Assembly (NCBI GenBank): GCA_902784805.1
Contig: CACZWD010000001.1
Coordinates: forward strand, 772-64,771
Length of the DNA: 64,000 nucleotides
Source of the DNA: an uncultured Ruminococcus sp.
Lineage (GTDB): Bacteria > Bacillota > Clostridia > RUG12999
Direction: 5' to 3'
Positions 1 through 53,880 of this stretch are shown in pieces. The position numbers and the translations under genes are program-made. The first letter of the stretch is position 1; each line of letters starts with the position of its first letter. The notes beneath the pieces are model-generated. The model was given only the letters and a program-made list of their open reading frames with translations. It was not told the origin of the DNA and ran no database searches.

Positions 1-959
1 GTAACCCTCCCGCTGACACAAAACAGCGTTATGTTACAAAGTTTTCTATACCGATATTTATTGTTGCTCTTACCGAGCTTTTGAAAAATGAGGGCGTTGA
101 TATTTTGTTTGATACGGTCGTTTCTAAGCCTGTCATGGAAGGCGGCGTATGCAGAGGCGTAATTGTGGAAAACAAAACGGGCAGAGAAATGTACCTTTGC
201 AAAATGATTGTTGATACAACGGGAGATGCCGATGTGCTTTACCGCGCGGGTGTACCGACGATTCAGGGGACGAATTTTCAAACTTTTCTCGCAAAAGGAG
301 TAACACTTGAAACGTGCGAGGAAGTTGTAAAAACGGGAGATATTGCAAAGCTTACCTGCGGTTATGATGGTGGTTTTGCCAATCTTTACGGTAAGAATCA
401 TCCCGAAGGACACAGGTTTTGGAAGGGTACCGATGCGCATGACGTAACAGATTATGTTGTGGAGTCACATATTAATTTGCTTAACAATATAAGAAATGAC
501 GACAGGAAAACAAGAGATATTATTCAGCTTCCCACAATGCCGCAGTTCCGCACAACAAGGTGCATTGAGGGGGATTATGTTTTTACGCAGGAAGATGTTT
601 ATAAGCATTTTGACGATTCCGTTGGAGCAATATGCGATTTTGAAAGAAAGAATTATCTTTATGAGGTACCTTTCGGTACACTTGTAAGGAAAGGTTTTCC
701 GAACATAATAACCGCGGGAAGATGTGCTTCCGGAAAAGGCTACGGCTGGGACCTTTTAAGAGTTATTCCGCCTGCAATAATAACAGGTCAGGCGGCGGGA
801 ATTGCCGCAAGTATGGCAATTGACAGCGGAAAGGCAATATATGACATTGATATTAAGAGCCTTCAAAAAACGCTTGAAGAACAAGACGTAATTATACATT
901 TTGACGATTCGCTTGTGATTCCGGGAGAAGCCGAAAAGGTTGATGTGGGACACATATAA
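1..959 (+). CDS. FAD-dependent oxidoreductase, 5'-truncated at the window edge. The reading frame is open back to nt 3, and the TTG at 81 is only the first start-like codon
   Basis: C-terminal part of a GidA/FAD_oxidored-like fold (…TAGRCASGKGYGWDLLRVIPPAIITGQAAGIAASMAI). No in-frame stop lies between nt 3 and 81, and no N-terminal GxGxxG is present, so the gene continues upstream of the window. Confidence 0.55.
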   Translation, partial: NPPADTKQRYVTKFSIPIFIVALTELLKNEGVDILFDTVVSKPVMEGGVCRGVIVENKTGREMYLCKMIVDTTGDADVLYRAGVPTIQGTNFQTFLAKGVTLETCEEVVKTGDIAKLTCGYDGGFANLYGKNHPEGHRFWKGTDAHDVTDYVVESHINLLNNIRNDDRKTRDIIQLPTMPQFRTTRCIEGDYVFTQEDVYKHFDDSVGAICDFERKNYLYEVPFGTLVRKGFPNIITAGRCASGKGYGWDLLRVIPPAIITGQAAGIAASMAIDSGKAIYDIDIKSLQKTLEEQDVIIHFDDSLVIPGEAEKVDVGHI

Positions 960-963
960 AAAA

Positions 964-1012
964 GAGCCTCGGTACGATGCAAATCTGCCGAGGCTTACTT
1001 AATAAATGTTTT
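964..1012 (+). terminator. Rho-independent terminator-like hairpin after the oxidoreductase gene
   Basis: GAGCCTCGG (964-972) pairs with CCGAGGCT (988-995), followed by a T-rich stretch. Confidence 0.4.
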
Positions 1013-1072
1013 TCGGTTAATAATCAAGAATAATAGCAAGGGTGAAGCTACCGAAGAAAAGAAGCATTATAC

Positions 1073-1101
1073 TTGACAAACAAGACGAAATTTTGTATAA
1101 T
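1073..1101 (+). promoter_or_regulatory. Sigma-A-type promoter for the GH26-like gene
   Basis: TTGACA (1073-1078), a 17-nt spacer, then TATAAT (1096-1101), about 70 nt upstream of the ATG at 1170. Confidence 0.6.
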
Positions 1102-1169
1102 TATTATGTGGTTTTATAGCAGTTGTATGATTTTATTTATCGGAAAGAGGAATTTACAGGAGAAAGAAC

Positions 1170-3149
1170 ATGAGAAAAAGTACGCTGATATCTTTTGTTA
1201 TTTTACTTGTTTTTACAGCGCGGCTTGTTTCATATGCGGCAGATATTCCAAAATCGCTTTGGGCGGATATTGACGCTTTCGGGGCTTATTACGCGGCGGG
1301 AAATGATGAGGGTATTTATTCTGAAGGCTGTAAAATAATTTCCGTTATGGAAGCGCAGCCGGAGTCGCAGACACGCACAGAGATGCTTGCGGGCAAATAT
1401 TATCAGGTCGCGCAGGCGGCGGAGGCGCTTGAGCTTTATGATGAAGCTGTGCGTTGTTACCTAAAATATATACCTTACGGCGAAATTATGGGCGAAACGG
1501 ACGGGGTGATTTTTGCAAGGAAAAAAGCGAAGCTTCTTGCAGGGCGGCTTAAAGTATTTTTTAAAGATTACTCGTTCTCACGTCCTGTTATATATTACGG
1601 CGCAAAATTTGAGCCGGAGGAAGGCGTGCTTTTCGGTTCGGTATATGATAAAGACAGCCGCGTGAACGGTTATGACAAGGAAAAAATCAAAGAGTTTTAC
1701 AGAAAAGTAAATTCGGCAAATCTTGTGTACCTTGAATTTGGTGATGATATTGAAGCTTATGGCAGATACGATAGGTTTTTCGGAGAAATAAAAAATTCGG
1801 GCGCGACGGTAATGTTTGCGTGGAATACGGCTTTGTTTTTGCCGGACATTGAGGAATATTCGGGGTATATAAAAAACACAATAGATTATCTCGGAAATAC
1901 AGGAGTTAATATTATTTTGAGGTTCAGCAATGAAATGAATGTTGCTCCAAACGGTGATAATCCGTCCGAATATATAAGGGCGTTTCGGTATGTTGCGGAC
2001 GTGGCGCATACAAAGAGCAATATTGCCGTTTGCTGGGCGCCTAACGATATAAGCGCGCTTGACAGGGGTTTTAAGGAATATTATCCCGGCGATGAATATG
2101 TAGATTGGATTGGCGTAAGCTTATATATGAACAGGTTTTTTAAAGGCGTGCCGAACCCTGATGCCAAGCAGCAGGATATTGACGATACGTATTTTCTTTG
2201 CGGAGATTATGCCGACCCGACTTTAAGGGTTTCGGATATTGTGGAGTTTATGCGGGCGGAGGATATAAAAAAGCCTCTCGCGATAACCGAATGCGGAACT
2301 CCGCAGAAAACAAATTTTACGGAAGACTGCCTTAAATGGGGTACTGCTCATATAGGAAAGCTTTACGGGGAGCTTGTAAGAAATTATCCGCAAATTAAAC
2401 TGATTTGCTATTTTAACATTGAGCGCAAGGACGAATCCCAAAGATACCAGCTTTATGACTGTCCGCAGCTTACGGAAGAATATATTAGAGCTGTAAGCGA
2501 TGATATTTTTCTTGACAGTGCGGAAAGACAAATCGGTTTTTGTTATAATCCTGTAATTTCTGATAGTATAAGCAGCGAAACTTTAGAGGTTTCGGCTTCG
2601 GCATATTATCCTCATACGGATTATGGTATGGTGACCTATTTTATTGACGGAATTTACGCCGGCGGCAGCGCTGTGGCTCCTTATAACTGCGTTCTTGATT
2701 TGAGCGGTCTTTCGGAAGGCAGTCATATTTTAAAGGTCAATTACGCGCAGGACGGAAAAGAGCTTCTTGTAAAGGAGTACGGTTTTAACTGTATTAAGCC
2801 GATAAATGTCATTTTAAACGGAGAAAAGCTTGTGTTCACCGATGTGGCGCCGTTTATAGTTGACGGACGCACATTAGTACCGCTTCGGGCAATTTTTGAA
2901 GCGCTTGGCGCTGAAATAGAGTGGAATGATGAAGCAAAAACAGTCACATCAAAGGGCAGGGGAGCAACGGTAAGCTTTACGATAGGAAGTCCGGAGCTTA
3001 TAAGAAACGGCGAAGTAATTGTTCTCGACGTGCCTTCGCAGATATATGAAAGCCGTACGGTTGTGCCTGTAAGAGCTATTGCGGAGAGCTTCGGCGCAAA
3101 GGTATCATGGATAGCCGAGTCACGGACAGTTGATATTATCAGCGAATAA
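1170..3149 (+). CDS. Secreted clan GH-A glycoside hydrolase (GH26-like, mannanase family) with C-terminal copper-amine-oxidase N-terminal-like repeat domains
   Basis: N-terminal signal peptide (MRKSTLISFVILLVFTARLVSYAAD). GH26-like catalytic motifs are present: RFSNEMN (acid/base Glu), ITECG (nucleophile Glu) and YPGDEYVDWIGVSLY. The C-terminal repeats (VAPFIVDGRTLVPLRAIFEALGAEIEWN, TVVPVRAIAESFGAKVSW) are typical of Cu-amine-oxidase N-domain 'stalk' repeats found on clostridial surface proteins. Confidence 0.7.
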   Translation: MRKSTLISFVILLVFTARLVSYAADIPKSLWADIDAFGAYYAAGNDEGIYSEGCKIISVMEAQPESQTRTEMLAGKYYQVAQAAEALELYDEAVRCYLKYIPYGEIMGETDGVIFARKKAKLLAGRLKVFFKDYSFSRPVIYYGAKFEPEEGVLFGSVYDKDSRVNGYDKEKIKEFYRKVNSANLVYLEFGDDIEAYGRYDRFFGEIKNSGATVMFAWNTALFLPDIEEYSGYIKNTIDYLGNTGVNIILRFSNEMNVAPNGDNPSEYIRAFRYVADVAHTKSNIAVCWAPNDISALDRGFKEYYPGDEYVDWIGVSLYMNRFFKGVPNPDAKQQDIDDTYFLCGDYADPTLRVSDIVEFMRAEDIKKPLAITECGTPQKTNFTEDCLKWGTAHIGKLYGELVRNYPQIKLICYFNIERKDESQRYQLYDCPQLTEEYIRAVSDDIFLDSAERQIGFCYNPVISDSISSETLEVSASAYYPHTDYGMVTYFIDGIYAGGSAVAPYNCVLDLSGLSEGSHILKVNYAQDGKELLVKEYGFNCIKPINVILNGEKLVFTDVAPFIVDGRTLVPLRAIFEALGAEIEWNDEAKTVTSKGRGATVSFTIGSPELIRNGEVIVLDVPSQIYESRTVVPVRAIAESFGAKVSWIAESRTVDIISE

Positions 3150-34674: not shown

Positions 34675-36357
34675 ATGAAAAACATTGTTGAGGAAATTAA
34701 AAATCAGATTAACGTAATTATAACCGAAGCTTTTGAGAAAACCGGTGCTTCGTGTGATTTTCCCTGTGGATTTGTAATTGAAAAGCCCAGAGAAAAAGCT
34801 CACGGCGATTTTTCGGCAAACATCGCGATGCTGCTCGCCAAACCGCTCGGAAAGGCACCAAGAGTTATTGCGCAGGAGCTTCTGTCGGTTATGGATTTTT
34901 CGGATAGCTTTATTGAAAAAGCCGAAATTGCCGGTCCCGGCTTTATAAACTTTTTTTTAAACGGCAGACAAAGAGAAAAAGCGGTTAAAATAATTCTGGA
35001 GGAAGGTAAGGATTACGGAAAAAGTGACAACTTAAAGGGCAAAAAAATTATGGTTGAGTTTGTAAGCGCAAATCCGACGGGACCTATGCATATGGGCAAC
35101 GCCAGGGGAGGAGCGCTCGGAGACAGCCTTGCCGCCGTGCTTGAATACGCGGGCGCTGATGTTACGAGAGAGTTTTATTTAAACGATGCCGGCGCGCAGA
35201 TAGTTAAGCTCGCGAAATCGCTTGACGCAAGATTTATGCAGCATTTTCTGGGCGAGGACGCCGTGGAATTTCCGGAGGACGGTTATCACGGTAATGATAT
35301 AAAAGAGCATATGGAGCGTTTTATTGCAGAAACGGGAGATAAATACTTAAATGTTCCGGAGGAAGAACGAAAAAAAGTAATTACCGATTATGTTCTTGAA
35401 AAAAATATCGCGGCGCTTCATACCGACCTTGAGGCTTATAAAATACATTATGACGTATGGTTTCCCGAAAGCGACCTCTATAAAAGCGGCGAGGTTGATG
35501 AAACCATAGAACAGCTTAAAAAATCGGATTATACCTACGAAAAGGACGGAGCTTTATGGTTCAAATCAACCGAATTCGGGCTTGAAAAGGACGATGTGCT
35601 TGTAAGAAACACCGGCATACCGACATATTTTGCGGTTGATATTGCCTATCACAGAAACAAATTTCTTATAAGAGGCTTTGACAAGGTTATAAACGTATGG
35701 GGCGCGGACCATCACGGTCATGTGGCGAGAATGAAGGGCGCCATGCAGGCGCTCGGAATAAATCCCGACAGGCTTCATGTTGTGCTTATGCAGCTTGTAA
35801 GGCTTATGCAGGACGGTGAGGTTGTAAGAATTTCAAAGCGTACCGGAAATATGATAACCTTAAACGACCTTATTGATGAAATCGGGCTTGAACCCGCAAG
35901 GTTTTTCTTTAATCTTCGTCAGGCGGAAAGTCACCTTGAGTTTGACCTTGACCTTGCGAAAAGTAAGACAAGCGAAAACCCCGTTTTTTATGTTCAATAT
36001 GCTCACGCCAGAATATGCAGCGTTCTGAGGCTTCTTGAAAGTGAGGGCGTGAAGCTGAAAAATGCTGAAGATATTAATTTCTCGCTTCTTTCGGCGGAGG
36101 AGGAAAAAGAGCTTATTGATAAGCTTGCGGCATATCCCGAAGAGCTTGCGGCTGCCGCGGAGCATTACGACCCTTCAAGGCTTACAAGATACGCCGTTGA
36201 GCTTGCGTCAGCTTTTCACAGCTTTTATAACGCCTGCCACATAAATGGCGTGGAGAAAGAGCTTATGCAGGCGAGGCTTGCGCTTGCGGTATGCGTTAAG
36301 ACGGTGCTTTACTCCGACCTTTCATTGCTTGGCGTTGAAGCCCCCGAAAAGATGTAG
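34675..36357 (+). CDS. argS: Arginine--tRNA ligase
   Basis: HMGNARGG (HIGH-type) and class I ArgRS anticodon-binding domain. Ends in TAG. Confidence 0.95.
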   Translation: MKNIVEEIKNQINVIITEAFEKTGASCDFPCGFVIEKPREKAHGDFSANIAMLLAKPLGKAPRVIAQELLSVMDFSDSFIEKAEIAGPGFINFFLNGRQREKAVKIILEEGKDYGKSDNLKGKKIMVEFVSANPTGPMHMGNARGGALGDSLAAVLEYAGADVTREFYLNDAGAQIVKLAKSLDARFMQHFLGEDAVEFPEDGYHGNDIKEHMERFIAETGDKYLNVPEEERKKVITDYVLEKNIAALHTDLEAYKIHYDVWFPESDLYKSGEVDETIEQLKKSDYTYEKDGALWFKSTEFGLEKDDVLVRNTGIPTYFAVDIAYHRNKFLIRGFDKVINVWGADHHGHVARMKGAMQALGINPDRLHVVLMQLVRLMQDGEVVRISKRTGNMITLNDLIDEIGLEPARFFFNLRQAESHLEFDLDLAKSKTSENPVFYVQYAHARICSVLRLLESEGVKLKNAEDINFSLLSAEEEKELIDKLAAYPEELAAAAEHYDPSRLTRYAVELASAFHSFYNACHINGVEKELMQARLALAVCVKTVLYSDLSLLGVEAPEKM

Positions 36358-39521: not shown

Positions 39522-41069
39522 TCAAATATTTTCTTCGGTAAGACGTTTTTTTTCAGCCTCCTGAATTTCAGGGAAAGCCGAAAGCATAGGCTCGATTTTT
39601 TTATGTTTAATGTTTCTGTCAACGTAGTTGTGGGTAAGCTTAATTACAAGCCCCGAAAGAGATAAAACGCCGATTAAGTTTGGCATCATCATAAGTCCGT
39701 TAAAGGTATCCGAAATATCCCAGGCAAGCGACGAAGTAAGGACAGCTCCGAACATAACCATTACAACGTGCATAATTTTAAATATAACCGTACTCTTTGT
39801 GCCAAACAGATATTCCCACGCTTTTGTGCCGTAATGAGACCAGCCGAGAACTGTTGTAAAGGCAAACAAAAACATTGCAATCGCAATAAATTTTGAGCCT
39901 ATATGTCCCCAAGCAAAAACGCTGTCAAACGCCGCGCCGACAAGAACAGCGTCCGAAGCCGCGGAAATTTCGCCGGTCGCGAGGTTATATACTCCCGAAG
40001 TCAAGATAACAAGCGCTGTCATTGTACAAACAACCATTGTGTCGGCAAACACTTCAAATATGCCCCACATACCCTGCTGTACAGGCTCGATTACATTTGA
40101 ATTTGAGTGTACCATAACCGACGAGCCGAGACCTGCTTCATTTGAGAAAACACCTCTTTTAAAGCCTTGAGTCATAACCGTGCTTATAACATATCCCACA
40201 CCGCCGCCGAGAGCCGCGATAGGCTTAAAGGCGTTTACAAAAATCGCTTTAAACGCGGCGCCTATATGTGCGAAATTTGTGCCGATAATTATAAGTGAGC
40301 CAATTACAAAAACAATAACCATAAAAGGAACGACTTTTTCGGCAAACGAAGCGATACGCTTTAACCCGCCAAGTATGATAAGACCCGCGAGAATCATAAT
40401 TATGACGCCTATTATTATACTGTAAAGAGATACGGCACTGTCACCGGAGCCCATAACCGTTACGCTCGACAAGGCTTTAATATCAAAAGCCGAGGTTATG
40501 TTCGCTACAATTTTATTAACCTGTCCCATACAGCCGATACCGAAAGAAGCGAGAACCGCGAAAATTGAGAACAGCACAGCAAGGACAGAGGCAAGACCGC
40601 CGCAGCCCTTGAACTTTCCAAGACCGTCTTTTATGTAATACATAGCGCCGCCCGACCATTCGCCGTCAGCGTTTTTGCGGCGGTAGTATATACCTAAAAT
40701 GTTTTCGGAGTAATTTGTCATCATACCGAAAAACGCCGCAATCCACATCCAGAATACAGCTCCCGCGCCGCCGATATGAATTGCCGCGGCAACTCCGGCA
40801 ATATTACCTGTGCCGATTGTTGCGGCAAGAGCAGTACAAAGCGCCTGGAAAGGCGAAATCGCTTTTCCTTTTGTGTGAGCGATTACTTTTTTGTCAAAAA
40901 GGCTGCCAATAGTGTTTTTCCACCAGTGCTTAATGTGAGATACCTGAAAAAACTTTGTGCATAAGGTTAAAATGATACCCGACGCAATAAGCAGCCAAAC
41001 GCCGATTTTCGTCCAGACAAATGTGTTGATAACATCGTTAAAATCCGCTAATTTTTCCAAGAAAAACAT
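39522..41069 (-). CDS. Sodium:alanine/glycine symporter (AGCS family)
   Basis: ALCTALAATIGTGNIAGVAAAI and GGPGAVFWMW-like motifs, 11-12 TM segments. Start moved to the ATG at 41069 with a GGAGG RBS. The 5' part of the long ORF-track ORF is the riboswitch leader. Confidence 0.85.
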   Translation of the reverse strand: MFFLEKLADFNDVINTFVWTKIGVWLLIASGIILTLCTKFFQVSHIKHWWKNTIGSLFDKKVIAHTKGKAISPFQALCTALAATIGTGNIAGVAAAIHIGGAGAVFWMWIAAFFGMMTNYSENILGIYYRRKNADGEWSGGAMYYIKDGLGKFKGCGGLASVLAVLFSIFAVLASFGIGCMGQVNKIVANITSAFDIKALSSVTVMGSGDSAVSLYSIIIGVIIMILAGLIILGGLKRIASFAEKVVPFMVIVFVIGSLIIIGTNFAHIGAAFKAIFVNAFKPIAALGGGVGYVISTVMTQGFKRGVFSNEAGLGSSVMVHSNSNVIEPVQQGMWGIFEVFADTMVVCTMTALVILTSGVYNLATGEISAASDAVLVGAAFDSVFAWGHIGSKFIAIAMFLFAFTTVLGWSHYGTKAWEYLFGTKSTVIFKIMHVVMVMFGAVLTSSLAWDISDTFNGLMMMPNLIGVLSLSGLVIKLTHNYVDRNIKHKKIEPMLSAFPEIQEAEKKRLTEENI

Positions 41070-41091
41070 ATATATTCCTCCTATAATAATA

Positions 41092-41127
41092 TACAAAAAA
41101 ACGGGCTGTGAAAACTCACATCCCGGC
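41092..41127 (-). terminator. Intrinsic terminator forming the expression platform of the glycine riboswitch
   Basis: On the minus strand: GGGATGTGA-GTTT-TCACAGCCC (9-bp stem with one mismatch) followed by GTTTTTTTG, positioned between the aptamer and the AGCS start codon. Confidence 0.55.
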
Positions 41128-41159
41128 AAAAGAAAAATACAAAAATATAAATTTATATT

Positions 41160-41338
41160 ATGTATCCGTCCTTTTGCCTGAGAGATTAGCCGGCTGTTGT
41201 TATGCCGGCGTTGCACCTTCGGCACCCGCTTTTTTCGGCGGGCTTCTCCGGATAGCCATCTGCATACAGTCCTCACCCTTTTGCATAAAGGGAACCTGAG
41301 AGTGTTACTCCTTCGGTTGCGTAAACGCATTTCCTGCA
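41160..41338 (-). ncRNA. Glycine riboswitch: one complete aptamer plus an upstream partial/ghost aptamer
   Basis: The minus strand reads …CCGGAGAAGCCCGCCGAAAAAAGCGGGUGCCGAAGGUGCAACGCCGGCAUAACAACAGCCGGCUAAUCUCUCAGGCAAAAGGACGG. This reproduces the glycine-aptamer hallmarks GGAGAG…P2…CCGAAGGxGCAA…P3…CUCUCAGGCAAAAGGAC. An upstream element ACCGAAGGAGUAACACUCUCAGG…CAAAAGGG repeats parts of the consensus. Confidence 0.75.
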
Positions 41339-41422
41339 TACGTCATCTGACTTTATTAACTGTTTAAGTATAGCATATTATTTTAAAATTGTCAATACTT
41401 TTAACAAATTTGTAATAAAGAT

Positions 41423-43467: not shown

Positions 43468-44565
43468 ATGAAAAGAGTTTTATGTATAGTCGGAGGAATG
43501 AATGCGGGCGGCGCGGAAACATTCCTTATGAAAGTTTACCGCAGACTTGATAAAAATAAATACCAAATGGATTTTGCGGTTGCAAACGATGGCTGTTATG
43601 ATGAAGAAATACGCCTTATGGGCGGAAAAATATTTAAAATAACACCTAAAAGTCAAGGGTTTTTGAAAAATTTTTTGTCGGTGAAAAAACTTGTCAAAAA
43701 CGAGGGGTATAAATATGTTTTGCGTACATCGCAACATTCGCTTTCGGCAATGGAGCTTTTGGCGGCAAGGCTTGGAGGAGCTAAGAAGCTTATTTACAGG
43801 TCAAGTAATTCAAACACAATAGACGGGAGCAAAAAAGGCTTATTATTACATAAATTATGCGGCTTTATGCCGATATTTTTTGCGAATGTGCGTATTGCGC
43901 CTTCAACAGAGGCAGCTGAATTTATGTTTGGAAAAGACTGCGTAAAAAAAGGTAAAGCAACAATTTTAAACAATGGTATTGACATGAGGATTTTTAACTA
44001 TAATGGGCAAAACAGAAACGAATGTCGTGAAGAATTTAAGCTTAAAAATAAGTTTGTTGTAGGTCATATCGGAAGGTTTAGCGCACAAAAAAATCATGAC
44101 TTTTTGCTTGAAATATTTGCTGAAATAAAGAAAAAAAAAGAAGATTCAATCCTTTTAATTGTCGGTGGAGGCGAGCTTGAAGCAGAAATAAAGCAAAAAG
44201 CAAAGGAACTGAATGTTTTTGATAATATAGTTTTTACGGGTGTTCGAAGTGATGTTTCAAAGCTCTTAAGCGCAATGGACGTTTTTGTTTTTCCTTCGTT
44301 TTATGAAGGTATGCCAAACACGGTTATCGAGGCACAGGCAGAAGGACTTCCTTGTATAATATCCGATACAATAACAAAGGAAGCGGATATTACAGGGCTT
44401 GTAAAATATTTGCCACTTGATTTGTCGGCAGAAAAGTGGGCGGACGAAGTTATTGATTGCGTGTCTGCCGAACGCAAAGAAACAAAAGATGATTTTGTAA
44501 AAAATGGATATGATATAGATAGTGTGACAGATAAATTTATACAGTTTGTGTTTGGAGATAAATAA
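43468..44565 (+). CDS. Glycosyltransferase family 4 (GT-B)
   Basis: N-terminal VGGMNAGGAETFL and C-terminal FPSFYEGMPNTVIEAQAEGLPCIISD motifs. Confidence 0.8.
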   Translation: MKRVLCIVGGMNAGGAETFLMKVYRRLDKNKYQMDFAVANDGCYDEEIRLMGGKIFKITPKSQGFLKNFLSVKKLVKNEGYKYVLRTSQHSLSAMELLAARLGGAKKLIYRSSNSNTIDGSKKGLLLHKLCGFMPIFFANVRIAPSTEAAEFMFGKDCVKKGKATILNNGIDMRIFNYNGQNRNECREEFKLKNKFVVGHIGRFSAQKNHDFLLEIFAEIKKKKEDSILLIVGGGELEAEIKQKAKELNVFDNIVFTGVRSDVSKLLSAMDVFVFPSFYEGMPNTVIEAQAEGLPCIISDTITKEADITGLVKYLPLDLSAEKWADEVIDCVSAERKETKDDFVKNGYDIDSVTDKFIQFVFGDK

Positions 44566-45815
44566 TGAAAATAGGAACAAATAAAATACCGAATTATATA
44601 GTAAATGTATTGACAGTTTTTTTATTATTTACATTTACATCACTTAATAAAATCACTTGGGGAAGATACGCTTTTCTCGGAATTACAGCTATTATTTTTG
44701 TGATCTCAGCAAGCACATATTGCGGCGGAGTGAAATTTAGCGTGCAACCGTTTCATATTTTTTTGTTTGCTTTTGCTGTTTATTGCGGTATTTCTTCGTT
44801 TTGGGCCGTAAATCCGGCAATGTCGATATCCGATTTTAAAACAATATGTTCAATACTTATATGCTATTCTGTTATATATGCTCACTATCAAAAAGAAAAT
44901 AGTATTAATGTACTTTTTGATATTATCAAGTATTCAGGATTAGCCGTTGCTTTGTATACTATTTGTTTTTATGGATTAGATGACATGATTATATCGGCAA
45001 GTGATGAAAATTTAAGATTGGGAAATTCTTTTGCAAATGTTAACAATATTGGAGTTGTTATGGCTTTTACAATCATTATGATTTTTAAAAATTTTATTAC
45101 AAAGAGAAATTATAAAGAGCTGCTTTTAATGGCACCTTGTATTGTTGTTATTGCCGCAACACAGAGCAGAAAAGCAATGATAAGTGCAACTTTTGGAATA
45201 TTTTTAATGTTGATTGTGATTAATGAAAAGAATAAAAATTTTTATAAAAGGTTTTTTAAATTCTTTTGTGTTATTGCTATATTTGTTTTTTGTATATATG
45301 CTATTTCAAAGTTTTCAGCGTTTGTTGGCATGTCCGAACGTTTACAAAGTATGCTGGATGCGTTTAACGGAGACAAGGGAGCTGACAGTTCATCACTTAA
45401 ACGTTTGAACATGATACGTTATGGAATAAATAGTTTTAAACAGCATCCGTTTTTTGGGATAGGTATAAAAAACACATATATTATAACCCGAAGATATTGG
45501 GGAGTCAATACATATTTACATAACAATTATGTTGAGCTTTTAGCAGGCGGAGGAATATTTGGTTTCACAATATATTATTCAATATATGTATATCTAATAT
45601 ATAATGTTATAAAGTATAAAAATGTCGACAGAGAAAATTTTGGAGTTTTTACAGTATTATTAATTATTATGCTTGTTCTTGATTACGGCATAGTTACGTA
45701 TTATTCAAAGTTACAATATTTTTATTTTATGATAATGTTTTTACATATTGATTTAGTAAAGAAAAGAGTGGAATGTTTCAGTGAAGATACAAAAAATCCT
45801 CAAAGCGGCATATAA
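44565..45815 (+). CDS. wzy: O-antigen/capsule repeat-unit polymerase (Wzy / O-antigen ligase family)
   Basis: About 12 TM segments with a large loop containing the RxxxxxxxxG-like motif (TQSRKAMISATFG). AT-rich, as usual for wzy. Confidence 0.65.
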   Translation: MKIGTNKIPNYIVNVLTVFLLFTFTSLNKITWGRYAFLGITAIIFVISASTYCGGVKFSVQPFHIFLFAFAVYCGISSFWAVNPAMSISDFKTICSILICYSVIYAHYQKENSINVLFDIIKYSGLAVALYTICFYGLDDMIISASDENLRLGNSFANVNNIGVVMAFTIIMIFKNFITKRNYKELLLMAPCIVVIAATQSRKAMISATFGIFLMLIVINEKNKNFYKRFFKFFCVIAIFVFCIYAISKFSAFVGMSERLQSMLDAFNGDKGADSSSLKRLNMIRYGINSFKQHPFFGIGIKNTYIITRRYWGVNTYLHNNYVELLAGGGIFGFTIYYSIYVYLIYNVIKYKNVDRENFGVFTVLLIIMLVLDYGIVTYYSKLQYFYFMIMFLHIDLVKKRVECFSEDTKNPQSGI

Positions 45816-46773: not shown

Positions 46774-47901
46774 ATGAATATTATTATTGGAGCAGATATA
46801 GTGCCGACAAAAACTAATGACGATTTATTTGAGGTCGGAAATGCCGAAGCTTTAATGGAAAATGAGTTAACACATTTTTTGAATACTTCTGATTACCGTA
46901 TATTTAATCTTGAAACGCCTCTTACGGATACAGAGGCGCCCATATCAAAAAACGGACCGAATTTAATCGCAAGCGCAAAATCTGTGAACGGATATAAAGC
47001 TATTGGCGTAAATCTTTTAACCGTTGCAAATAATCATATTATGGATCAAGGCGAGCAGGGTTTTTTTTCAACACTAAAATTACTTAAAAAAAACGGAATT
47101 GATTATGTCGGCGCAGGAGAAAATGTTAGAACCGCAAGAGAACCGTATGTCTTTGAAATTGACAACATAAAAATTGGCGTTTATGCTTGTGCGGAGCATG
47201 AGTTTTCGATAGCAACAGAAAATATGGCAGGCGCAAATCCATTTGAGCCGTTAGATTCTTTTGACCACATCTGTGAGCTTAAACAGAAATGTGATAGAGT
47301 TATTGTTTTATATCATGGTGGAAAGGAACATTACAGATATCCATCACCTTATTTACAGAAGATATGCCGTAAATTTATTGAAAAGGGTGCTGATATTATA
47401 GTTTGTCAGCATAGTCATTGTGTAGGCTGTGAAGAAAAATACCTGCAAGGCACAATAGTTTACGGGCAGGGAAATTTTATATTCGACGCGCAAGATAATG
47501 AGTTTTGGAAAACAAGCCTTTTAATTTCCGTCAATGAAGAATTTAACATAAAATATATACCGTTAATAAAAAAAGGAAACGGTGTGAGATTTGCAAAAAA
47601 AAATGAAGCAAACAACATTCTTGATGGATTTAAAAAAAGAAGTGAGCAGATAAAACAGGCGGGTTTTTTAGAAAAGAAATATGCCGAGTTCGCCAAAGAA
47701 AATATTTATAATTATCTTTTAAACATATCCGGTATAAGGTATAGTTTTTTTATGAGAGTATTAAATAAAATCAGCAGAGGAAAATTTATTGTTTTTTTTA
47801 TAAAGAGAAAATACAAACAAAACAAGGTTTTAAAAATTATTAATTATATGGATTGTGAATCCCACAGAGAGCTTTTTTTAAAAGGTTTGGAAAGTATGTG
47901 A
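46774..47901 (+). CDS. CapA/PgsA-family protein (PGA_cap, metallophosphatase fold)
   Basis: NLETPLTDTE…GVNLLTVANNHIMDQG…VLYHGGKEH…VCQHSHC are the hallmark blocks of the poly-gamma-glutamate CapA family. Confidence 0.7.
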   Translation: MNIIIGADIVPTKTNDDLFEVGNAEALMENELTHFLNTSDYRIFNLETPLTDTEAPISKNGPNLIASAKSVNGYKAIGVNLLTVANNHIMDQGEQGFFSTLKLLKKNGIDYVGAGENVRTAREPYVFEIDNIKIGVYACAEHEFSIATENMAGANPFEPLDSFDHICELKQKCDRVIVLYHGGKEHYRYPSPYLQKICRKFIEKGADIIVCQHSHCVGCEEKYLQGTIVYGQGNFIFDAQDNEFWKTSLLISVNEEFNIKYIPLIKKGNGVRFAKKNEANNILDGFKKRSEQIKQAGFLEKKYAEFAKENIYNYLLNISGIRYSFFMRVLNKISRGKFIVFFIKRKYKQNKVLKIINYMDCESHRELFLKGLESM

Positions 47902-47964
47902 TATGGGGGAAAGAAACAATTTAAAGTTTTTGATATGAACCCCATTTCAGTAAATGTTGGGTTG

Positions 47965-48032
47965 AATAAAGTTTCGCACACATGTTGTATTTTATATGAA
48001 TATACGTGCGAAACTTTATTTCGTTTTATATT
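47965..48032. terminator. Bidirectional terminator between the two convergent polysaccharide operons
   Basis: Perfect 15-bp inverted repeat AATAAAGTTTCGCAC (47965-47979) and GTGCGAAACTTTATT (48006-48020) followed by TCGTTTTATATTATTA. Confidence 0.6.
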
Positions 48033-48033
48033 A

Positions 48034-49038
48034 TTATGCGTCTTTTTTGATAAGCAGCTTCTTTTTTAAGCAGCCGGATAAAGGCAACTCTATATATTTA
48101 TGTATACAATAAGCAAGAATCATATTTATTGCAAGCAGGGCAATAATAATACATATTGATTGAAAGTTGAATACTTTGATTTTTAAATTATATAGTACGA
48201 GATATGTCACTTTTTGGTGTATTAAATAAAGAGGATATGATATTGCCGATAAAAAAACAAGCGGTTTGTCATATTTAAACTTTATATTTGTTTTCGCGAA
48301 GATAAATATAAGCAGCGCTGAAATTAATACAAATACAGCTTTTGCCGAAACAGGTATAATTAAAGCGAATATAATGGCAATGTTAAAATAAGACAAAAAA
48401 GCTTTTTTGTTTTTTATAATTAACGCGATGGACATACCGATAATAAACTCATGCGCGTGTTCCGCCAAGAATAACACATTGAAAAATGTGTAAAGCCTGC
48501 CGGCGAACACCATTTTACCGAACAATTTATATATTATAACCACAAACAGCCATAACGTATTTATTTTTTCAATATGTTTTATCAGTTTCAGTTTAATCAG
48601 TCCGGCAATTATTAATGAAAAACCGACTTCATAAAGCAACGTCCAATAAACGCCGTCAACACAAGGCGTCATCAAAAATTCCTGCAGCATTGTAAAATTT
48701 ATCAGCGTAGGTATGACACCGATAAAACTTGCTTTATCAAGTAAAACTGTAAAAATTGTGGTGAATATTATCCCAAACCAATATGCGGGATAAAGACGTA
48801 TAGCTCTTTTTAAAAGAAAATTAGAAGCTTTTGTATCGGATTTCATATTATTAATAACAAGATACCCCGTTATCATGAAAAATACAGCCACAGCCCAGCA
48901 GCCCCACCACAAACCTATGTGGTTTTTTTCGTGTTCAAGCCCGATATATGAGTCCCACTATCTGACGGTATAGTGATATAAGGCGATAAACACGGCGCAT
49001 ATACCGCGAATATAATCAAGACCATATATTTTTTTCAT
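48034..49038 (-). pseudogene. Acyltransferase family 3 (O-acyltransferase) gene interrupted by a single in-frame TAG
   Basis: Reading from the ATG at 49038 gives MKKIYGLDYIRGICAVFIALYHYTVR-TAG-WDSYIGLEHEKNHIGLWWGCWAVAVFFMITGYLV…. This is the canonical acyltransferase-3 N-terminus continuing in the same frame into the ORF-track ORF 48034..48912. Only the TAG at 48958-48960 breaks it. Confidence 0.7.
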
Positions 49039-49081
49039 AATGCTTCACAATCCTTTTAAAATATTTTTTGTTTTTTGCCGG

Positions 49082-50155
49082 TTAATATAAATATTTCAAG
49101 AAATTATATTTTTGACTGAGTTTTATTATAATAAATGAAATGACGCCGCAAATTAACAGTGTACTAAAAAATAAAATGGTACATTTATATATTGAATGTA
49201 TATCATAATTTGCAGAAATATATTTGTTTAAAAGAATCATTATAGAACCATGGGAACAATATATAATTGTCGAAGTTTTTCTAAATATGGTATAAATCGG
49301 CTTATATTCAAGCGGTATTTTTAAGCATAAAATAAGTAATGAAGCCGATAACAATGGTAACATCATACAGGTTGTTCCCGATTTCGGCATATAATCTGTC
49401 GTGGTATAAAACAGCAAAAAAATCTCCGCAGCGGTTAAAATAAATAAGAAAGTAAATATAATTAATGCTTTTTTTACGGAGATATTAATACTTTCTTCAT
49501 GCTCTGCTATGATTTTACCTATAACAAAAAATATCAAAGCAAACGGGAAAGATATATAAAACGTTCCCCAATAGTGATTTATAAGATCAAATATTTTATT
49601 TAAGTGTTCTCCTGTCAAAAAATTATAGTAAGTCATAAGAAGACATATAATATAACAGAAAACAGCGATACCGATTGCAAGGCGGTTTTTGCCTTTATCT
49701 GTTTTACAGGCGAAAAACAAAAGTATAGCATCTATGATGCATGCCATTAAAAACCAGGAAGCGGGAAAGCCGTTGCCGAGTATAATATCACGAATAAGAA
49801 TAATAAACGATTTTAAAGACATATTATTTGGAAATCCGAGTTTAAACACCGCTACATAAACACCGTTTAACAAAAACCATACCGAATATAGTATAAACAG
49901 ACGTTTACAGTAATTAAAAACTCTCATGTGCGGCTCGGGACTTTTTTTCATCCCTCTGAATAAAAAATAACTGCTGGTTACAAAGAAAAACGGAACGGCT
50001 ATTCTGCAAATTACAAATATAATAAAAACGTAACCATAGCCATAAACAGAATTTTGGCGCAGAGAAAAATTACCGACCTGACAAGAATGTAACAAAATTA
50101 TAAGAATCGAAAAAACAAATTTTAAAATGTCTATTGATGCGTTTTTACTTTTCAT
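49082..50155 (-). CDS. Acyltransferase family 3 (membrane O-acyltransferase)
   Basis: N-terminal IDILKFVFSILIILLHS and 10 TM segments. Confidence 0.75.
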   Translation of the reverse strand: MKSKNASIDILKFVFSILIILLHSCQVGNFSLRQNSVYGYGYVFIIFVICRIAVPFFFVTSSYFLFRGMKKSPEPHMRVFNYCKRLFILYSVWFLLNGVYVAVFKLGFPNNMSLKSFIILIRDIILGNGFPASWFLMACIIDAILLFFACKTDKGKNRLAIGIAVFCYIICLLMTYYNFLTGEHLNKIFDLINHYWGTFYISFPFALIFFVIGKIIAEHEESINISVKKALIIFTFLFILTAAEIFLLFYTTTDYMPKSGTTCMMLPLLSASLLILCLKIPLEYKPIYTIFRKTSTIIYCSHGSIMILLNKYISANYDIHSIYKCTILFFSTLLICGVISFIIIKLSQKYNFLKYLY

Positions 50156-51210
50156 TTCGTTTTCCTTTCTCCGATAATTACAGGAACGGTATATCTTATT
50201 ATTATTGTCAGCCCATATGATATAATAACCGTAACAAAGGATATTGCGGTAACAACAAGAAAATTATCCGCCTGTGGGAAAGCGGCGTTACAGATATGGC
50301 AAAGCTTTTGAATAATAGGCTTATGAAGTAAAAAAATAGGCATCGTGCTTTTCCCCAAAGCAATAAGCGGTGAAATATTAAGTCGCATTTTTGTAACAAA
50401 AGCTGAAAAAGATGTCAGCATAACAGTTCCGAGCATTGCGTCCATAATATATAAAAAGTAATTTCCGTATTCCGAGCTTGCCATATCGACATTGTTTATT
50501 TGTATATACTTTAAATTTAATTTAAAAGTAAAGAACAAGAAAACAAAAGTAAAAACCGTAAAAAACAATAAATTTACGCCGCTGTAAAATTTAACGTATT
50601 TTCTGGTTATCACTTTAAAAATATATCCGAAAAGTATAAAGGCACATGCCATTGGCGCAACGTTAACACACCACGGATAGCCGATTTTAATGTGCGGAAG
50701 AAAATAGGAAATCATGCTTAAAACAAATGCAAATACCATTATGGTAAAATATTTGTATGGATTTTTGCATTTCAGCGAATTTACAAAACACATAATTATC
50801 TCCGTAAAGCAAACCGCCGCAAACATACACGGCAAAAACCATATTGATGTCAGGGAATCGGCAGCTTTAAAGCCGTACTGACTGCCGTACAAAATATATA
50901 GAAATGATTTAATACTGAAGGAGCCTTGTTTTATGCCGTTTAAAGCGGCATAAAACAAGGACCAGAAGGCGGCGGGGATAATTAATCTTTTTAATTTTCC
51001 GAAAACAAATAGTTTTGTTAAAAAACCTTTGTTTTCGTGAGAAGATAAATTATATGTCAAGCCGTAAACAAAAAAGAATACAGGCATATGAAAAGAGTAT
51101 ATAAACTGTTTAAGGGCATTGTCACAAAGGGGGGCGTGCGCAAATACTACCAAAAAAATAGCAAATGCTTTTAACACATCGACATAATCATATCTTTTCA
51201 TAAATATCAT
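50152..51210 (-). CDS. Acyltransferase family 3 (membrane O-acyltransferase)
   Basis: RYDYVDVLKAFAIFLVVFAHAP N-terminus. Start is ambiguous: TTG at 51216, ATG at 51210 or ATG at 51201. Confidence 0.7.
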   Translation of the reverse strand: MIFMKRYDYVDVLKAFAIFLVVFAHAPLCDNALKQFIYSFHMPVFFFVYGLTYNLSSHENKGFLTKLFVFGKLKRLIIPAAFWSLFYAALNGIKQGSFSIKSFLYILYGSQYGFKAADSLTSIWFLPCMFAAVCFTEIIMCFVNSLKCKNPYKYFTIMVFAFVLSMISYFLPHIKIGYPWCVNVAPMACAFILFGYIFKVITRKYVKFYSGVNLLFFTVFTFVFLFFTFKLNLKYIQINNVDMASSEYGNYFLYIMDAMLGTVMLTSFSAFVTKMRLNISPLIALGKSTMPIFLLHKPIIQKLCHICNAAFPQADNFLVVTAISFVTVIISYGLTIIIRYTVPVIIGERKTK

Positions 51211-52163
51211 CACCAATTTTGCAATAATATATTTGTACTTACTTCATTGAACATTCTTATACGCGCTTCAACCGTACCTCCCGCTATATGCGGCGTTACA
51301 ATAACATTTTTCATATTCTCATTCCACATACCGAAAACCTTATCGGCGTCAACATCCATACCTATACAAAAGCAGTCGTTGTCACGGGCTTTTTTAAAAA
51401 GGTGAGCGTTATCGGTAAGCTCCGACCTTGATACAGATATAAAAACCGCATTGTTCTTCATATTATTTATTCTTGAAGCGGAAATAATGCCTTCCGTTTC
51501 GGGCGTGTACGGTAAATTCAGCGAAATTATATCGGAAGATTTTATAAGCTCGTCAAGTTCCGTAAACACCACTCCGTCATCAGATAAATCGGTATGCTTT
51601 TCAGGATTTCTTGTCCATGAGATTCGTTCCATTCCGAATGCCTTTGCCATTTTAAGTACGGCTCCGGCAGTACCGCCTGCGCCGATAATGCCAATAGTCA
51701 AACCATAAAGGTCATGCGGTTTATAACGCATTTCCTTCTTGTTTTTGCCAAGCGCAGCCGTAATTTTGCCGTCAATGAACTGTTTTTTCAGCGCGATTAT
51801 AAGTCCAAAAATATGTTCTGCCACGGATATTTTATTGGCATTCGGCGCATTTACAACCTTGATAATATTTTTTTTGTCATCGGGAATACTGATATGATCC
51901 GTGCCTATGGATGCGGTTGCTATTATTTTTTTGCAAGGGGGGGTGTTTTTTAACATATTTTCGGTTATCTTTTGCGCAGTGCTTATGATTATAATATCGT
52001 ATTCATCTATAAGCTTTTTGAGTTCATTTCCACAAGGACGTTCTTTACCTTTCGGGTGAAGAATTACTTTAATATTATTTTTTTCCAGAAGCTCCGAAGC
52101 GGATTTAGGGAAATCGTCAAATACCGAATATGCTATCATATCAATTCTCTCCAAAGTAGTCAT
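51210..52163 (-). CDS. D-isomer-specific 2-hydroxyacid dehydrogenase family protein (NAD-binding)
   Basis: GIIGAGGTAGAVLKMAKAFGM Rossmann motif and a catalytic R/E/H framework (VTPHIAGGT). Confidence 0.8.
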   Translation of the reverse strand: MTTLERIDMIAYSVFDDFPKSASELLEKNNIKVILHPKGKERPCGNELKKLIDEYDIIIISTAQKITENMLKNTPPCKKIIATASIGTDHISIPDDKKNIIKVVNAPNANKISVAEHIFGLIIALKKQFIDGKITAALGKNKKEMRYKPHDLYGLTIGIIGAGGTAGAVLKMAKAFGMERISWTRNPEKHTDLSDDGVVFTELDELIKSSDIISLNLPYTPETEGIISASRINNMKNNAVFISVSRSELTDNAHLFKKARDNDCFCIGMDVDADKVFGMWNENMKNVIVTPHIAGGTVEARIRMFNEVSTNILLQNW

Positions 52164-53880
52164 TTAAATATTGTGCCGCAAACGTTCTGTCACAGGCGGC
52201 TTTTTTTTCGGCAGGCATATTTTTGAGTAAATCTATTAAAATATCTGTTGTTACCCTGCTGTCCTTTAAAAATATAGAAATATAGCTCGGTGTGCAGCCG
52301 TAAAGCGAAGAAAGGAAGTAATCCAGACAATAGCCCCACGGATTTGTCTTTATTACATTCGCAAAATACTCAGATATTTCATCATATATCTCTATGGTGC
52401 TGTAACAATTACCTTCAGAATTAAGAACGGGAATAATAAGCTCGGTGCAAAGATTTCCCGCGCCTTTTCCCATACCCGTAATGCTTGCATCAAGCATAAG
52501 ATCATGGTTTAATGGACAGTTCACTGCCACGCAAGCGTTTGCAAACGCCAACTGTCTGTTGTTGTGGGCGTGAAAACCGATTTTCATAGTGCTGCTTACG
52601 TGATGGTCAACCAGATCAAGCATATGAAGAAGAGAAACGCTGTCCATTTGTCCGAAACTGTCAACAACATAAAAAGCTTTTGCTTCCGGTAATTCTTTAT
52701 TACAACAAGCTATCAGCTCTAAAAATTCATCATCGGAATAGCGTATTGAAACCATAGGCTGAATATATAATTCGTAGCCGCGCTGCAATATTTTTTTGGC
52801 ATTTATTATTGCATCGCGCCAATTTTCTTTATGAAAAGCGTATCTTATACCATCAATACCGGAAACGTCGGCAGCTTGCAATTTATCCAAATCAAAGGTG
52901 CCGTAATCTATCATCGCAAGGTATTTAACACCTGTTTTTTTGCCTGATTTAAGTATAGTGTTTTTAATACTTGTTGGATTATCAAAACAGGTATGACCGT
53001 CATCCAAGCCTGTTTTTTCGTTTATATAGCCACATTCTATATATTCAACACCTGAATTTTCAAGACATTCCTTTATTTTAATTGCCCGTTTTAAACCAAA
53101 ATCAAATTTTATTACGATACCACCGTCGCGCAAAGTACAATCGAGAAGCTGAATTTTCCGTGTTTTCTTGGCTGTACGCATAACTCTATCGGCAATATCC
53201 AGGTCATTATCTGTCGTAATTTTAAAATTACTTGTGTGTCCTGTGACAATTTTTATTTTATATCCTGCCTTAAGCATAAGCTGAGTTGTGCCGGTAACGG
53301 CGCTTTTGTCGCTGTTACCGAAACGGTTAAGGGTATCATGTAAAAGCTTTAAATTAAAGCCGGAGGGAGTTTGTCCATTATATAAGCTGTTACGATCAAG
53401 TGTGCCTGTTATAAAATCTTTATCATTGTATGAAATAAACATCGTATCCGTTGTCGGTATTACCGTAAGGGCAAGTCCGGCTTCTTTTGTTGCTTTAATA
53501 CAATCATCAATCATTTGTTCGCTTACAAAAGGACGCACAGAATCGTGGCAAATAAGAATATCGCTGTCATTAAGTCCGGTTCTTTCTATAATATCATCCA
53601 TAATATTTACAAATGAATCAATGCGTTCTTTGCCGCCGGAAACTATGCGAATCCTTTGAAGCTCATTTTTTGAAAAATGCTGCTTAAACAGATTTTCAGC
53701 GTATTCCGTCCACTCCGGATGTACGGCGATATATATAATATCAATGTTTGTATTATCAATGAATTTACGAAGCGTCAGAAGTATAATCGGAACTCCGCCT
53801 ATTGATATGAACTGTTTTGGTATAGAGTGACGTTCTATTCGCTTTCCTGTTCCTCCTGCTAAAATTGCTGCATATATCAT
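52141..53880 (-). CDS. Bifunctional protein: N-terminal IspD/TarI-like cytidylyltransferase fused to a C-terminal HMGL-like (DmpG/pyruvate-carboxyltransferase TIM-barrel) domain
   Basis: N-terminus AAILAGGTGKRIERHSIPKQFISIGGVPII is the IspD-family signature. C-terminal half has LLDCTLRDGG (DRE-TIM) and FHAHNNRQLAFANACVAV (HxH), as in 4-hydroxy-2-oxovalerate aldolase/HMG-CoA lyase-like enzymes. AAAGGGGAAAAAAT RBS. Confidence 0.7.
   Translation of the reverse strand: MIYAAILAGGTGKRIERHSIPKQFISIGGVPIILLTLRKFIDNTNIDIIYIAVHPEWTEYAENLFKQHFSKNELQRIRIVSGGKERIDSFVNIMDDIIERTGLNDSDILICHDSVRPFVSEQMIDDCIKATKEAGLALTVIPTTDTMFISYNDKDFITGTLDRNSLYNGQTPSGFNLKLLHDTLNRFGNSDKSAVTGTTQLMLKAGYKIKIVTGHTSNFKITTDNDLDIADRVMRTAKKTRKIQLLDCTLRDGGIVIKFDFGLKRAIKIKECLENSGVEYIECGYINEKTGLDDGHTCFDNPTSIKNTILKSGKKTGVKYLAMIDYGTFDLDKLQAADVSGIDGIRYAFHKENWRDAIINAKKILQRGYELYIQPMVSIRYSDDEFLELIACCNKELPEAKAFYVVDSFGQMDSVSLLHMLDLVDHHVSSTMKIGFHAHNNRQLAFANACVAVNCPLNHDLMLDASITGMGKGAGNLCTELIIPVLNSEGNCYSTIEIYDEISEYFANVIKTNPWGYCLDYFLSSLYGCTPSYISIFLKDSRVTTDILIDLLKNMPAEKKAACDRTFAAQYLNDYFGEN

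Follow-up and report, generated by a model that had tools for sequence, protein, structure and literature searches.

A premature amber codon in a stand-alone O-acyltransferase gene of a Wzx/Wzy-type polysaccharide locus marks a likely natural null allele in an uncultured gut bacterium

Gene content of the locus

The analysed DNA, here called the window, is a stretch of 64,000 nucleotides, and its host is an uncultured Oscillospiraceae/Ruminococcaceae-type bacterium, probably of rumen origin. Its MinD belongs to a 90% cluster in which the named members carry this annotation. Between 41.5 and 60.5 kb it holds two convergent operons that form a Wzx/Wzy-type polysaccharide locus (features listed in Table 1). 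The last gene of the minus-strand operon is a disrupted O-acyltransferase gene of the acyltransferase-3 (AT3) family, encoding the AT3 domain only, which lies inside the locus among neighbours that include Wzy_C, Polysacc_synt and Glyphos_transf. A sequence-only reading of the same stretch had called this gene the first of three tandem acyltransferases, which it is only in plus-strand coordinates; in the order of transcription it is the last.

The hairpin just downstream of the disrupted gene lies between the convergent operons, and none of 200 shuffled sequences folds as well. On the plus-strand transcript a T-rich tail comes after the hairpin, which is probably a shared bidirectional terminator. 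As the disrupted gene is terminal in its operon, a nonsense mutation within it cannot be polar on other genes.

Two intact AT3 genes precede the disrupted gene in the operon, and the protein encoded by the nearer one (357 aa) is identical to that in three other assemblies. All three AT3 products match PF01757, in keeping with the sequence-only reading, but the close paralogy implied there was not borne out, with no pairwise similarity between the three proteins detectable by BLASTP (E = 1.2, 3.4 and 0.043). Recent tandem duplication was rejected for this reason. Judged by these comparisons, the three proteins are distant members of one superfamily, and their acceptor specificities presumably differ.

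Elsewhere in the minus-strand operon, the gene at 52141–53880 encodes a 579-aa fusion of an IspD-like cytidylyltransferase and an HMGL-like (aldolase/lyase TIM-barrel) domain, and adjoins the genes for the 2-hydroxyacid dehydrogenase and the TagF-like glycerophosphotransferase fusion. Together these genes hint that the polysaccharide bears an uncommon substituent, a CDP-activated phospho-alcohol or acid. A glycine riboswitch (RF00504, 62 bits, full-length match) is present at 41156–41261 on the minus strand, within the long N-terminal 'extension' of ORF 39522–41339. The real gene, which is multi-pass transporter-like, must therefore start downstream of the riboswitch, and is probably glycine-regulated.

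Table 1. Features of the acyltransferase region and the surrounding polysaccharide locus (window coordinates)
Feature	Position	Strand	Details
Disrupted AT3-only O-acyltransferase gene	48034..49038	-	334 codons + stop; PF01757 match across the stop
Premature amber TAG, codon 27	48958..48960	-	TAT (Tyr) in other orthologous alleles
N-terminal stub	48961..49038	-	26 codons, most of transmembrane helix 1 (TMH1); R11-X10-H22 complete
R11	49006..49008	-	R/K-X10-H motif, upstream of TAG
H22	48973..48975	-	R/K-X10-H motif, upstream of TAG
Residual ORF	48034..48912	-	292 codons from TTG 48912; keeps FFMITG and RAIR, without TMH1
FFMITG, residues 53-58	48865..48882	-	FFxISG-like motif
RAIR, residues 78-81	48796..48807	-	RXXR motif
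Shine-Dalgarno-like AAAGGA	49051..49056	-	12 nt upstream of ATG 49038; read from sequence
Second AT3 acyltransferase, intact	49082..50155	-	357 aa; K12-X10-H23; PF01757 73.6 bits
Third AT3 acyltransferase, intact	50152..51216	-	~354 aa; K16-X10-H27; PF01757 90.2 bits
Hairpin	47965..48020	.	19 bp, 18-nt loop; dG -19.3 kcal/mol, z = -5.6
Plus-strand operon		+	GT1, C5-epimerase-like, GT4, Wzy, TupA-like ATP-grasp, PGA_cap
Minus-strand operon, early genes		-	DUF6625, two GT2, Polysacc_synt flippase
Minus-strand operon, rest		-	Gly_transf_sug/TagF-like fusion, IspD/HMGL-like fusion, 2-hydroxyacid dehydrogenase, three acyltransferases

An amber codon within a single acyltransferase domain

From the ATG at 49038–49036 on the minus strand, the disrupted gene runs through 26 sense codons (MKKIYGLDYIRGICAVFIALYHYTVR) to the TAG at codon 27, after which the same frame continues for 307 more sense codons and ends in TAA at 48036–48034. 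With the stop masked for the Pfam search, the interrupted product scored 83.5 bits with Acyl_transf_3 (PF01757; cut-off 31), with residues 4–312 aligned to profile positions 1–324 of 326. The domain thus runs across the stop and both halves belong to one domain; a chance juxtaposition of two ORFs was considered and rejected, as the match is continuous over the TAG. The sequence and the Pfam match together confirm the frame that had been described previously, from the ATG through the TAG and open to 48034. No named NCBIfam subfamily was returned for the disrupted protein.

The Shine-Dalgarno-like sequence sits in a 43-nt spacer between the preceding gene and the disrupted gene, and apart from the TAG the window allele has no other ORF damage. 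With its reading frame broken at codon 27, the gene is to be classed, as far as its sequence tells, among AT3 genes as a null allele or pseudogene. Gene callers in the public records annotate products of 285 or 280 aa in the region of the residual ORF.

The TAG had been taken as a genuine stop on the strength of argS, and argS (34675–36357) does end in TAG. Among 54 long ORFs in the window, 30 end in TAA, 19 in TGA and five, including argS, in TAG. Since TAG closes argS and four other ORFs it is an ordinary terminator in this genome, and stop-codon recoding (amber suppression/pyrrolysine) was rejected on this evidence and because the orthologous codon is TAT.

The ancestral codon

A search of a 5.8-billion-protein collection returned 471 homologues, with the closest relatives falling into one 90%-identity cluster. 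The closest intact orthologue, P0001, has 331 aa and is 91% identical. In 23 aligned homologues, the column of the stop is occupied by Tyr in nearly all, and sometimes by His or Phe. The N-terminal segment is present in all 23 and likewise in a larger alignment of 64 homologues, so the suggestion that the gene might naturally start at TTG 48912, downstream of the TAG, fails. At the DNA level, codon 27 is TAT in all five other alleles (L001, L002, L008, L009 and L011), which identifies the lesion as a single T>G transversion. The changed base is at the third codon position (window 48958) in the context CAGATA[T/G]TGGGAC, where there is no repeat.

Reproducibility of the premature stop

The window was assembled from a metagenome, and one wrong base is all that an error would require, so the true codon could in principle be TAT and the gene intact; we consider this highly improbable. 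Records of the adjacent 357-aa acyltransferase exist for four contigs, and the three that were retrieved, namely ERZ27280356 (k141), ERZ28613006 (scaffold STEW19-1_SAMEA5383938) and ERZ1029115 (k87), all span the site and all read TAG. Two of these sequences, L006 and L007, show no difference from the window (compared over 7.2 and 5.3 kb), while L005 has one SNP in 9.1 kb, located at window 47625 in the PGA_cap gene, which makes it at least a slightly different genotype; the TAG is present in each. The identical TAG is thus found in four assemblies of the window strain, which were made with no fewer than three different pipelines or k-mer sizes (k87, k141 and the scaffold record) and may stem partly from the same or related rumen samples.

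The same TAG is also carried by L010, a 2.6-kb contig from ERZ1029116, whose gene neighbourhood differs: the gene begins with TTG, the acyltransferase upstream is another one, and wzy follows immediately. This contig shares 98.7% identity with L002, whereas identity between its flanks and the window is only ~84%. The presence of the TAG in four assemblies and on a second genomic background, within non-repetitive sequence, argues against assembly error. A random assembly error is therefore very unlikely to lie behind the TAG given these sequences, and the sequencing error raised in the sequence-only reading is not supported.

Several contigs break in or at the edge of the disrupted gene, with L007 ending at window ~48871 and L010 starting at the gene start. 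Breaks of this kind are expected when strain variants that co-exist tangle the assembly graph, and they hint at several alleles co-occurring in single samples. ERZ1029116 contains both an intact allele (L001) and the TAG allele (L010).

Predicted consequences for the enzyme

AT3 enzymes carry an R/K-X10-H motif within transmembrane helix 1, whose histidine is shared by every characterised member of the family, and in OafA the R14A and H25A substitutions leave only 0.07% and 0.33%, respectively, of the wild-type O-antigen acetylation (PMC7448272). In the disrupted gene both motif residues, R11 and H22, lie upstream of the TAG; in the 64-homologue alignment H22 does not vary and the conservation of R11 is 90% or more. 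The FFxISG-like and RXXR motifs are both in the orphaned downstream part, and F53 and R81 within them are invariant in the 64 homologues. When the intact orthologue P0001 is modelled with AlphaFold (pLDDT 95, pTM 0.92), residues 5–32 form the first helix, so the stop at codon 27 truncates the protein inside helix 1.

Downstream of the stop, in-frame starts are found at codons 43 (TTG), 50 (GTG), 55 (ATG) and 65 (ATG), each of which would give a product without the R-X10-H motif. As the stub holds the whole of this motif, any downstream restart product should be dead. Taken together, the lost motif, the truncation and the position of the restart sites predict loss of acyltransferase activity. 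The earlier suggestion of a nonsense-inactivated gene gains support from the reproducible TAG, the TAT of the orthologues and the lost motif.

It is very doubtful that the gene is functional despite the TAG, whether by amber suppression, by read-through, or by re-initiation giving a truncated or split enzyme. The two TAG backgrounds differ at 43 sites with a dN/dS of 0.24, which could mean continued constraint, although recombination between alleles that function (Rm of at least 20, described below) accounts for this low value. Suppression or read-through is at odds with the use of TAG to terminate argS and four other ORFs, and with orthologues encoding the Tyr by TAT and not TAG; there is also no tRNA gene in the window, a result that says nothing about the remainder of the genome. 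Re-initiation is opposed by the internal starts at codons 43, 50, 55 and 65, none of which is preceded by a Shine-Dalgarno-like sequence, and by a downstream product that would be without R11 and H22; OafA can do without neither of the corresponding residues, R14 and H25. L010, moreover, has since lost R11.

Orthologous alleles in other strains

Seven distinct orthologous alleles were found, with nucleotide identities to the window of 89.7–95.9%. The allele on L008:1-3406 was counted once, as this contig is an inverted duplicate of itself with the same gene at 633–1634 (plus) and 1773–2774 (minus), a typical assembler hairpin artefact. Three alleles (L001, L008 and L009) have intact ORFs, and three kinds of lesion disrupt the other four: Y27amber in the window strain and in L010, an opal codon at W87 (TGG>TGA) in L002, and a frameshift from an A6>A7 insertion near codon 157 in L011/L012. 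On the L002 contig, which was seen in three samples, TGA ends seven of nine gene calls. L010 carries R11C, a substitution of the essential arginine, on top of the TAG. Distinct disruptive mutations thus occur among strains alongside co-existing intact alleles, with L011/L012 counted cautiously for the reason given below.

L011 is syntenic with the window at ~92% identity (L011:555-630 and L011:1016-2021; window 47741–50054), and its second AT3 gene has an A7>A6 deletion, giving two A-run indels in 2.3 kb. These might be slipped-strand inactivation of two decorations, or homopolymer errors; because indels lie in A-runs in both AT3 genes, they are possible errors and the L011/L012 lesion is treated with caution. 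L009 and L010 share G129D in a near-invariant VDG motif, so the intact ORF of L009 may not mean a functional enzyme.

Pairwise dN/dS is 0.11–0.17 for distant allele pairs and 0.24–0.39 for the closest pairs involving broken alleles. Coding constraint, for which a dN/dS comparison had been proposed in the sequence-only reading, is therefore seen across the alleles (0.11–0.39), and the highest values among close broken alleles point to long-term purifying selection with recent breaks. An old, freely decaying pseudogene does not fit this pattern and was rejected.

A related alternative is neutral decay of a gene that was already dispensable, the acyltransferase being redundant or its substrate lost (for example through changes elsewhere in the locus), so that under relaxed selection the lesions would have no effect on the polysaccharide and no adaptive meaning. 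The several lesions and the damaging-looking R11C and G129D in one orthologue group are consistent with this, as are the dN/dS of up to 0.3–0.4 among the closest alleles and the two further AT3 genes that adjoin. We nevertheless regard it as distinctly unlikely: dN/dS is well below 1 (0.11–0.39), three alleles keep the full ORF, the window allele has no extra ORF damage downstream of its TAG, and the three AT3 proteins are too divergent for obvious redundancy.

Mosaic structure of the alleles

The four-gamete test fails for 1385 of 3916 informative-site pairs, requiring at least 20 recombination events (Rm). Over its first ~600 nt the window allele is nearest to L009 and L010, from ~600 to 825 it is nearest to L001, and its 3' end is near none of the sampled alleles. 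When L002:6442-9068 is compared with L010:1-2627, 29 of the 33 mismatches fall inside the 1-kb acyltransferase gene. Between the window and L002, the gene (48026–49037) is 95% identical, compared with 84% for the adjacent wzy/GT region (43497–45766). On these alignments, the disrupted gene behaves as a recombining cassette that occurs in at least three different neighbourhoods.

Recombination allows one TAG to occur on two backgrounds without the need for two identical mutations, and allows the window and L010 to differ at low dN/dS though both are null. Metagenome assemblers can yield chimeric haplotypes, so part of the observed mosaicism may be artefactual, and the TAG could have been placed on the L010 background artificially by the assembler.

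A population-level O-acylation switch, in which balancing selection keeps null and intact alleles in rumen Oscillospiraceae, is a more tentative proposal that we consider possible but rather unlikely. Phages or host antibodies recognising the acylated polysaccharide would be an example of such a pressure, and recombination in the 1-kb cassette would move lesions across backgrounds and could repair them. A commensal gut anaerobe would then vary a capsule decoration on and off by means of recombination. The TAG on two backgrounds, the clustering of mismatches in the gene, the contrast of 95% and 84% identity and the Rm of at least 20 are compatible with this proposal.

Discussion

We conclude that the interrupted gene is likely to be a genuine natural null allele of a stand-alone AT3 O-acyltransferase in a Wzx/Wzy-type surface-polysaccharide locus. 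A single T>G change converted Tyr27 (TAT) to amber (TAG) within transmembrane helix 1, translation from ATG 49038 stops after 26 residues, and any re-initiation product would be without the R-X10-H motif, which AT3 enzymes need for acyl uptake from the cytoplasmic donor. The polysaccharide would still be made, given that the other genes are intact and nothing downstream is open to polarity, and would be missing one of up to three acyl decorations. In this reading the population holds intact and several independently broken alleles, shuffled by homologous recombination. With such a mixture, the O-acylation state would vary between strains, as with pneumococcal wcjE. The sequences show the lesion, its recurrence across assemblies, the ancestral codon, the lost motif and the lesions of other alleles; we infer the loss of activity, the change in the polysaccharide and any selective benefit, and by analogy the state of the acyltransferase may give rise to antigenic or phage-related variation.

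The wcjE gene is an AT3-only gene in the pneumococcal cps locus whose disruption turns serotypes 11A and 9V into 11E and 9A, respectively, and most 11E isolates carry distinct, unrelated wcjE mutations that include nonsense SNPs and small duplications (PMC4072641, PMC9558356). The wciG gene varies similarly (35B to 35D and 20B to 20C). Like wcjE, the gene described here belongs to a Wzx/Wzy polysaccharide locus and codes for a stand-alone membrane acyltransferase of the AT3 family, with multiple unrelated lesions and intact alleles persisting in the population. The comparison with wcjE drawn in the sequence-only reading is therefore apt, as the orthologues of other strains carry different lesions beside intact alleles. 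The likeness rests on enzyme family, locus type and lesion pattern, all of which are read here from DNA sequence. Unlike the wcjE case, the host is an uncultured ruminant-gut commensal of the class Clostridia, known from metagenomes alone, one lesion (the TAG) is common to two backgrounds, and the alleles are heavily mosaic.

The gene product also resembles the O-antigen acetyltransferases OafA and OafB of Salmonella and Oac and OacB of Shigella flexneri, sharing with them PF01757, the R/K-X10-H motif in transmembrane helix 1, an FFxISG-like motif (here FFMITG) and an RXXR motif (here RAIR). What the truncated product is missing can be read from the mutagenesis of these residues in OafA and Oac (PMC7448272). 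It is AT3-only like Oac, unlike OafA and OafB in being without a fused SGNH domain, and, unlike the phage-borne oac, its gene is chromosomal and within a biosynthetic operon.

As with classical phase-variable genes, cells or strains would differ in whether a surface decoration is on or off. Unlike slipped-strand or invertible-promoter switches, however, the window's lesion replaces a single base and involves neither a repeat tract nor an invertible element, and a short A-run (A6>A7) is involved in the L011 allele only. Such a change outside repeats does not count as classical phase variation, and to revert, the gene would have to mutate back or recombine with an intact copy. The on/off variant envisaged in the sequence-only reading thus survives as a natural variant, but not as a reversible switch.

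The event is of a well-known kind and this is a fresh example of it, with recurrent lesions and mosaic alleles of modest population-genetic interest. The public calls of 280–285-aa Acyl_transf_3 proteins mask a null allele without the catalytic helix, and pipelines that count such ORFs as functional would overestimate acylation capacity. Loss-of-function variation in polysaccharide-modifying acyltransferases, a mechanism well documented in pneumococci, Shigella and Salmonella, appears not to be limited to pathogens; it is visible in uncultured gut commensals and is detectable here from metagenome assemblies alone. Should the on/off state prove to follow pressure from phages or the host, the locus would serve well as a marker of strain-level surface variation in the rumen.
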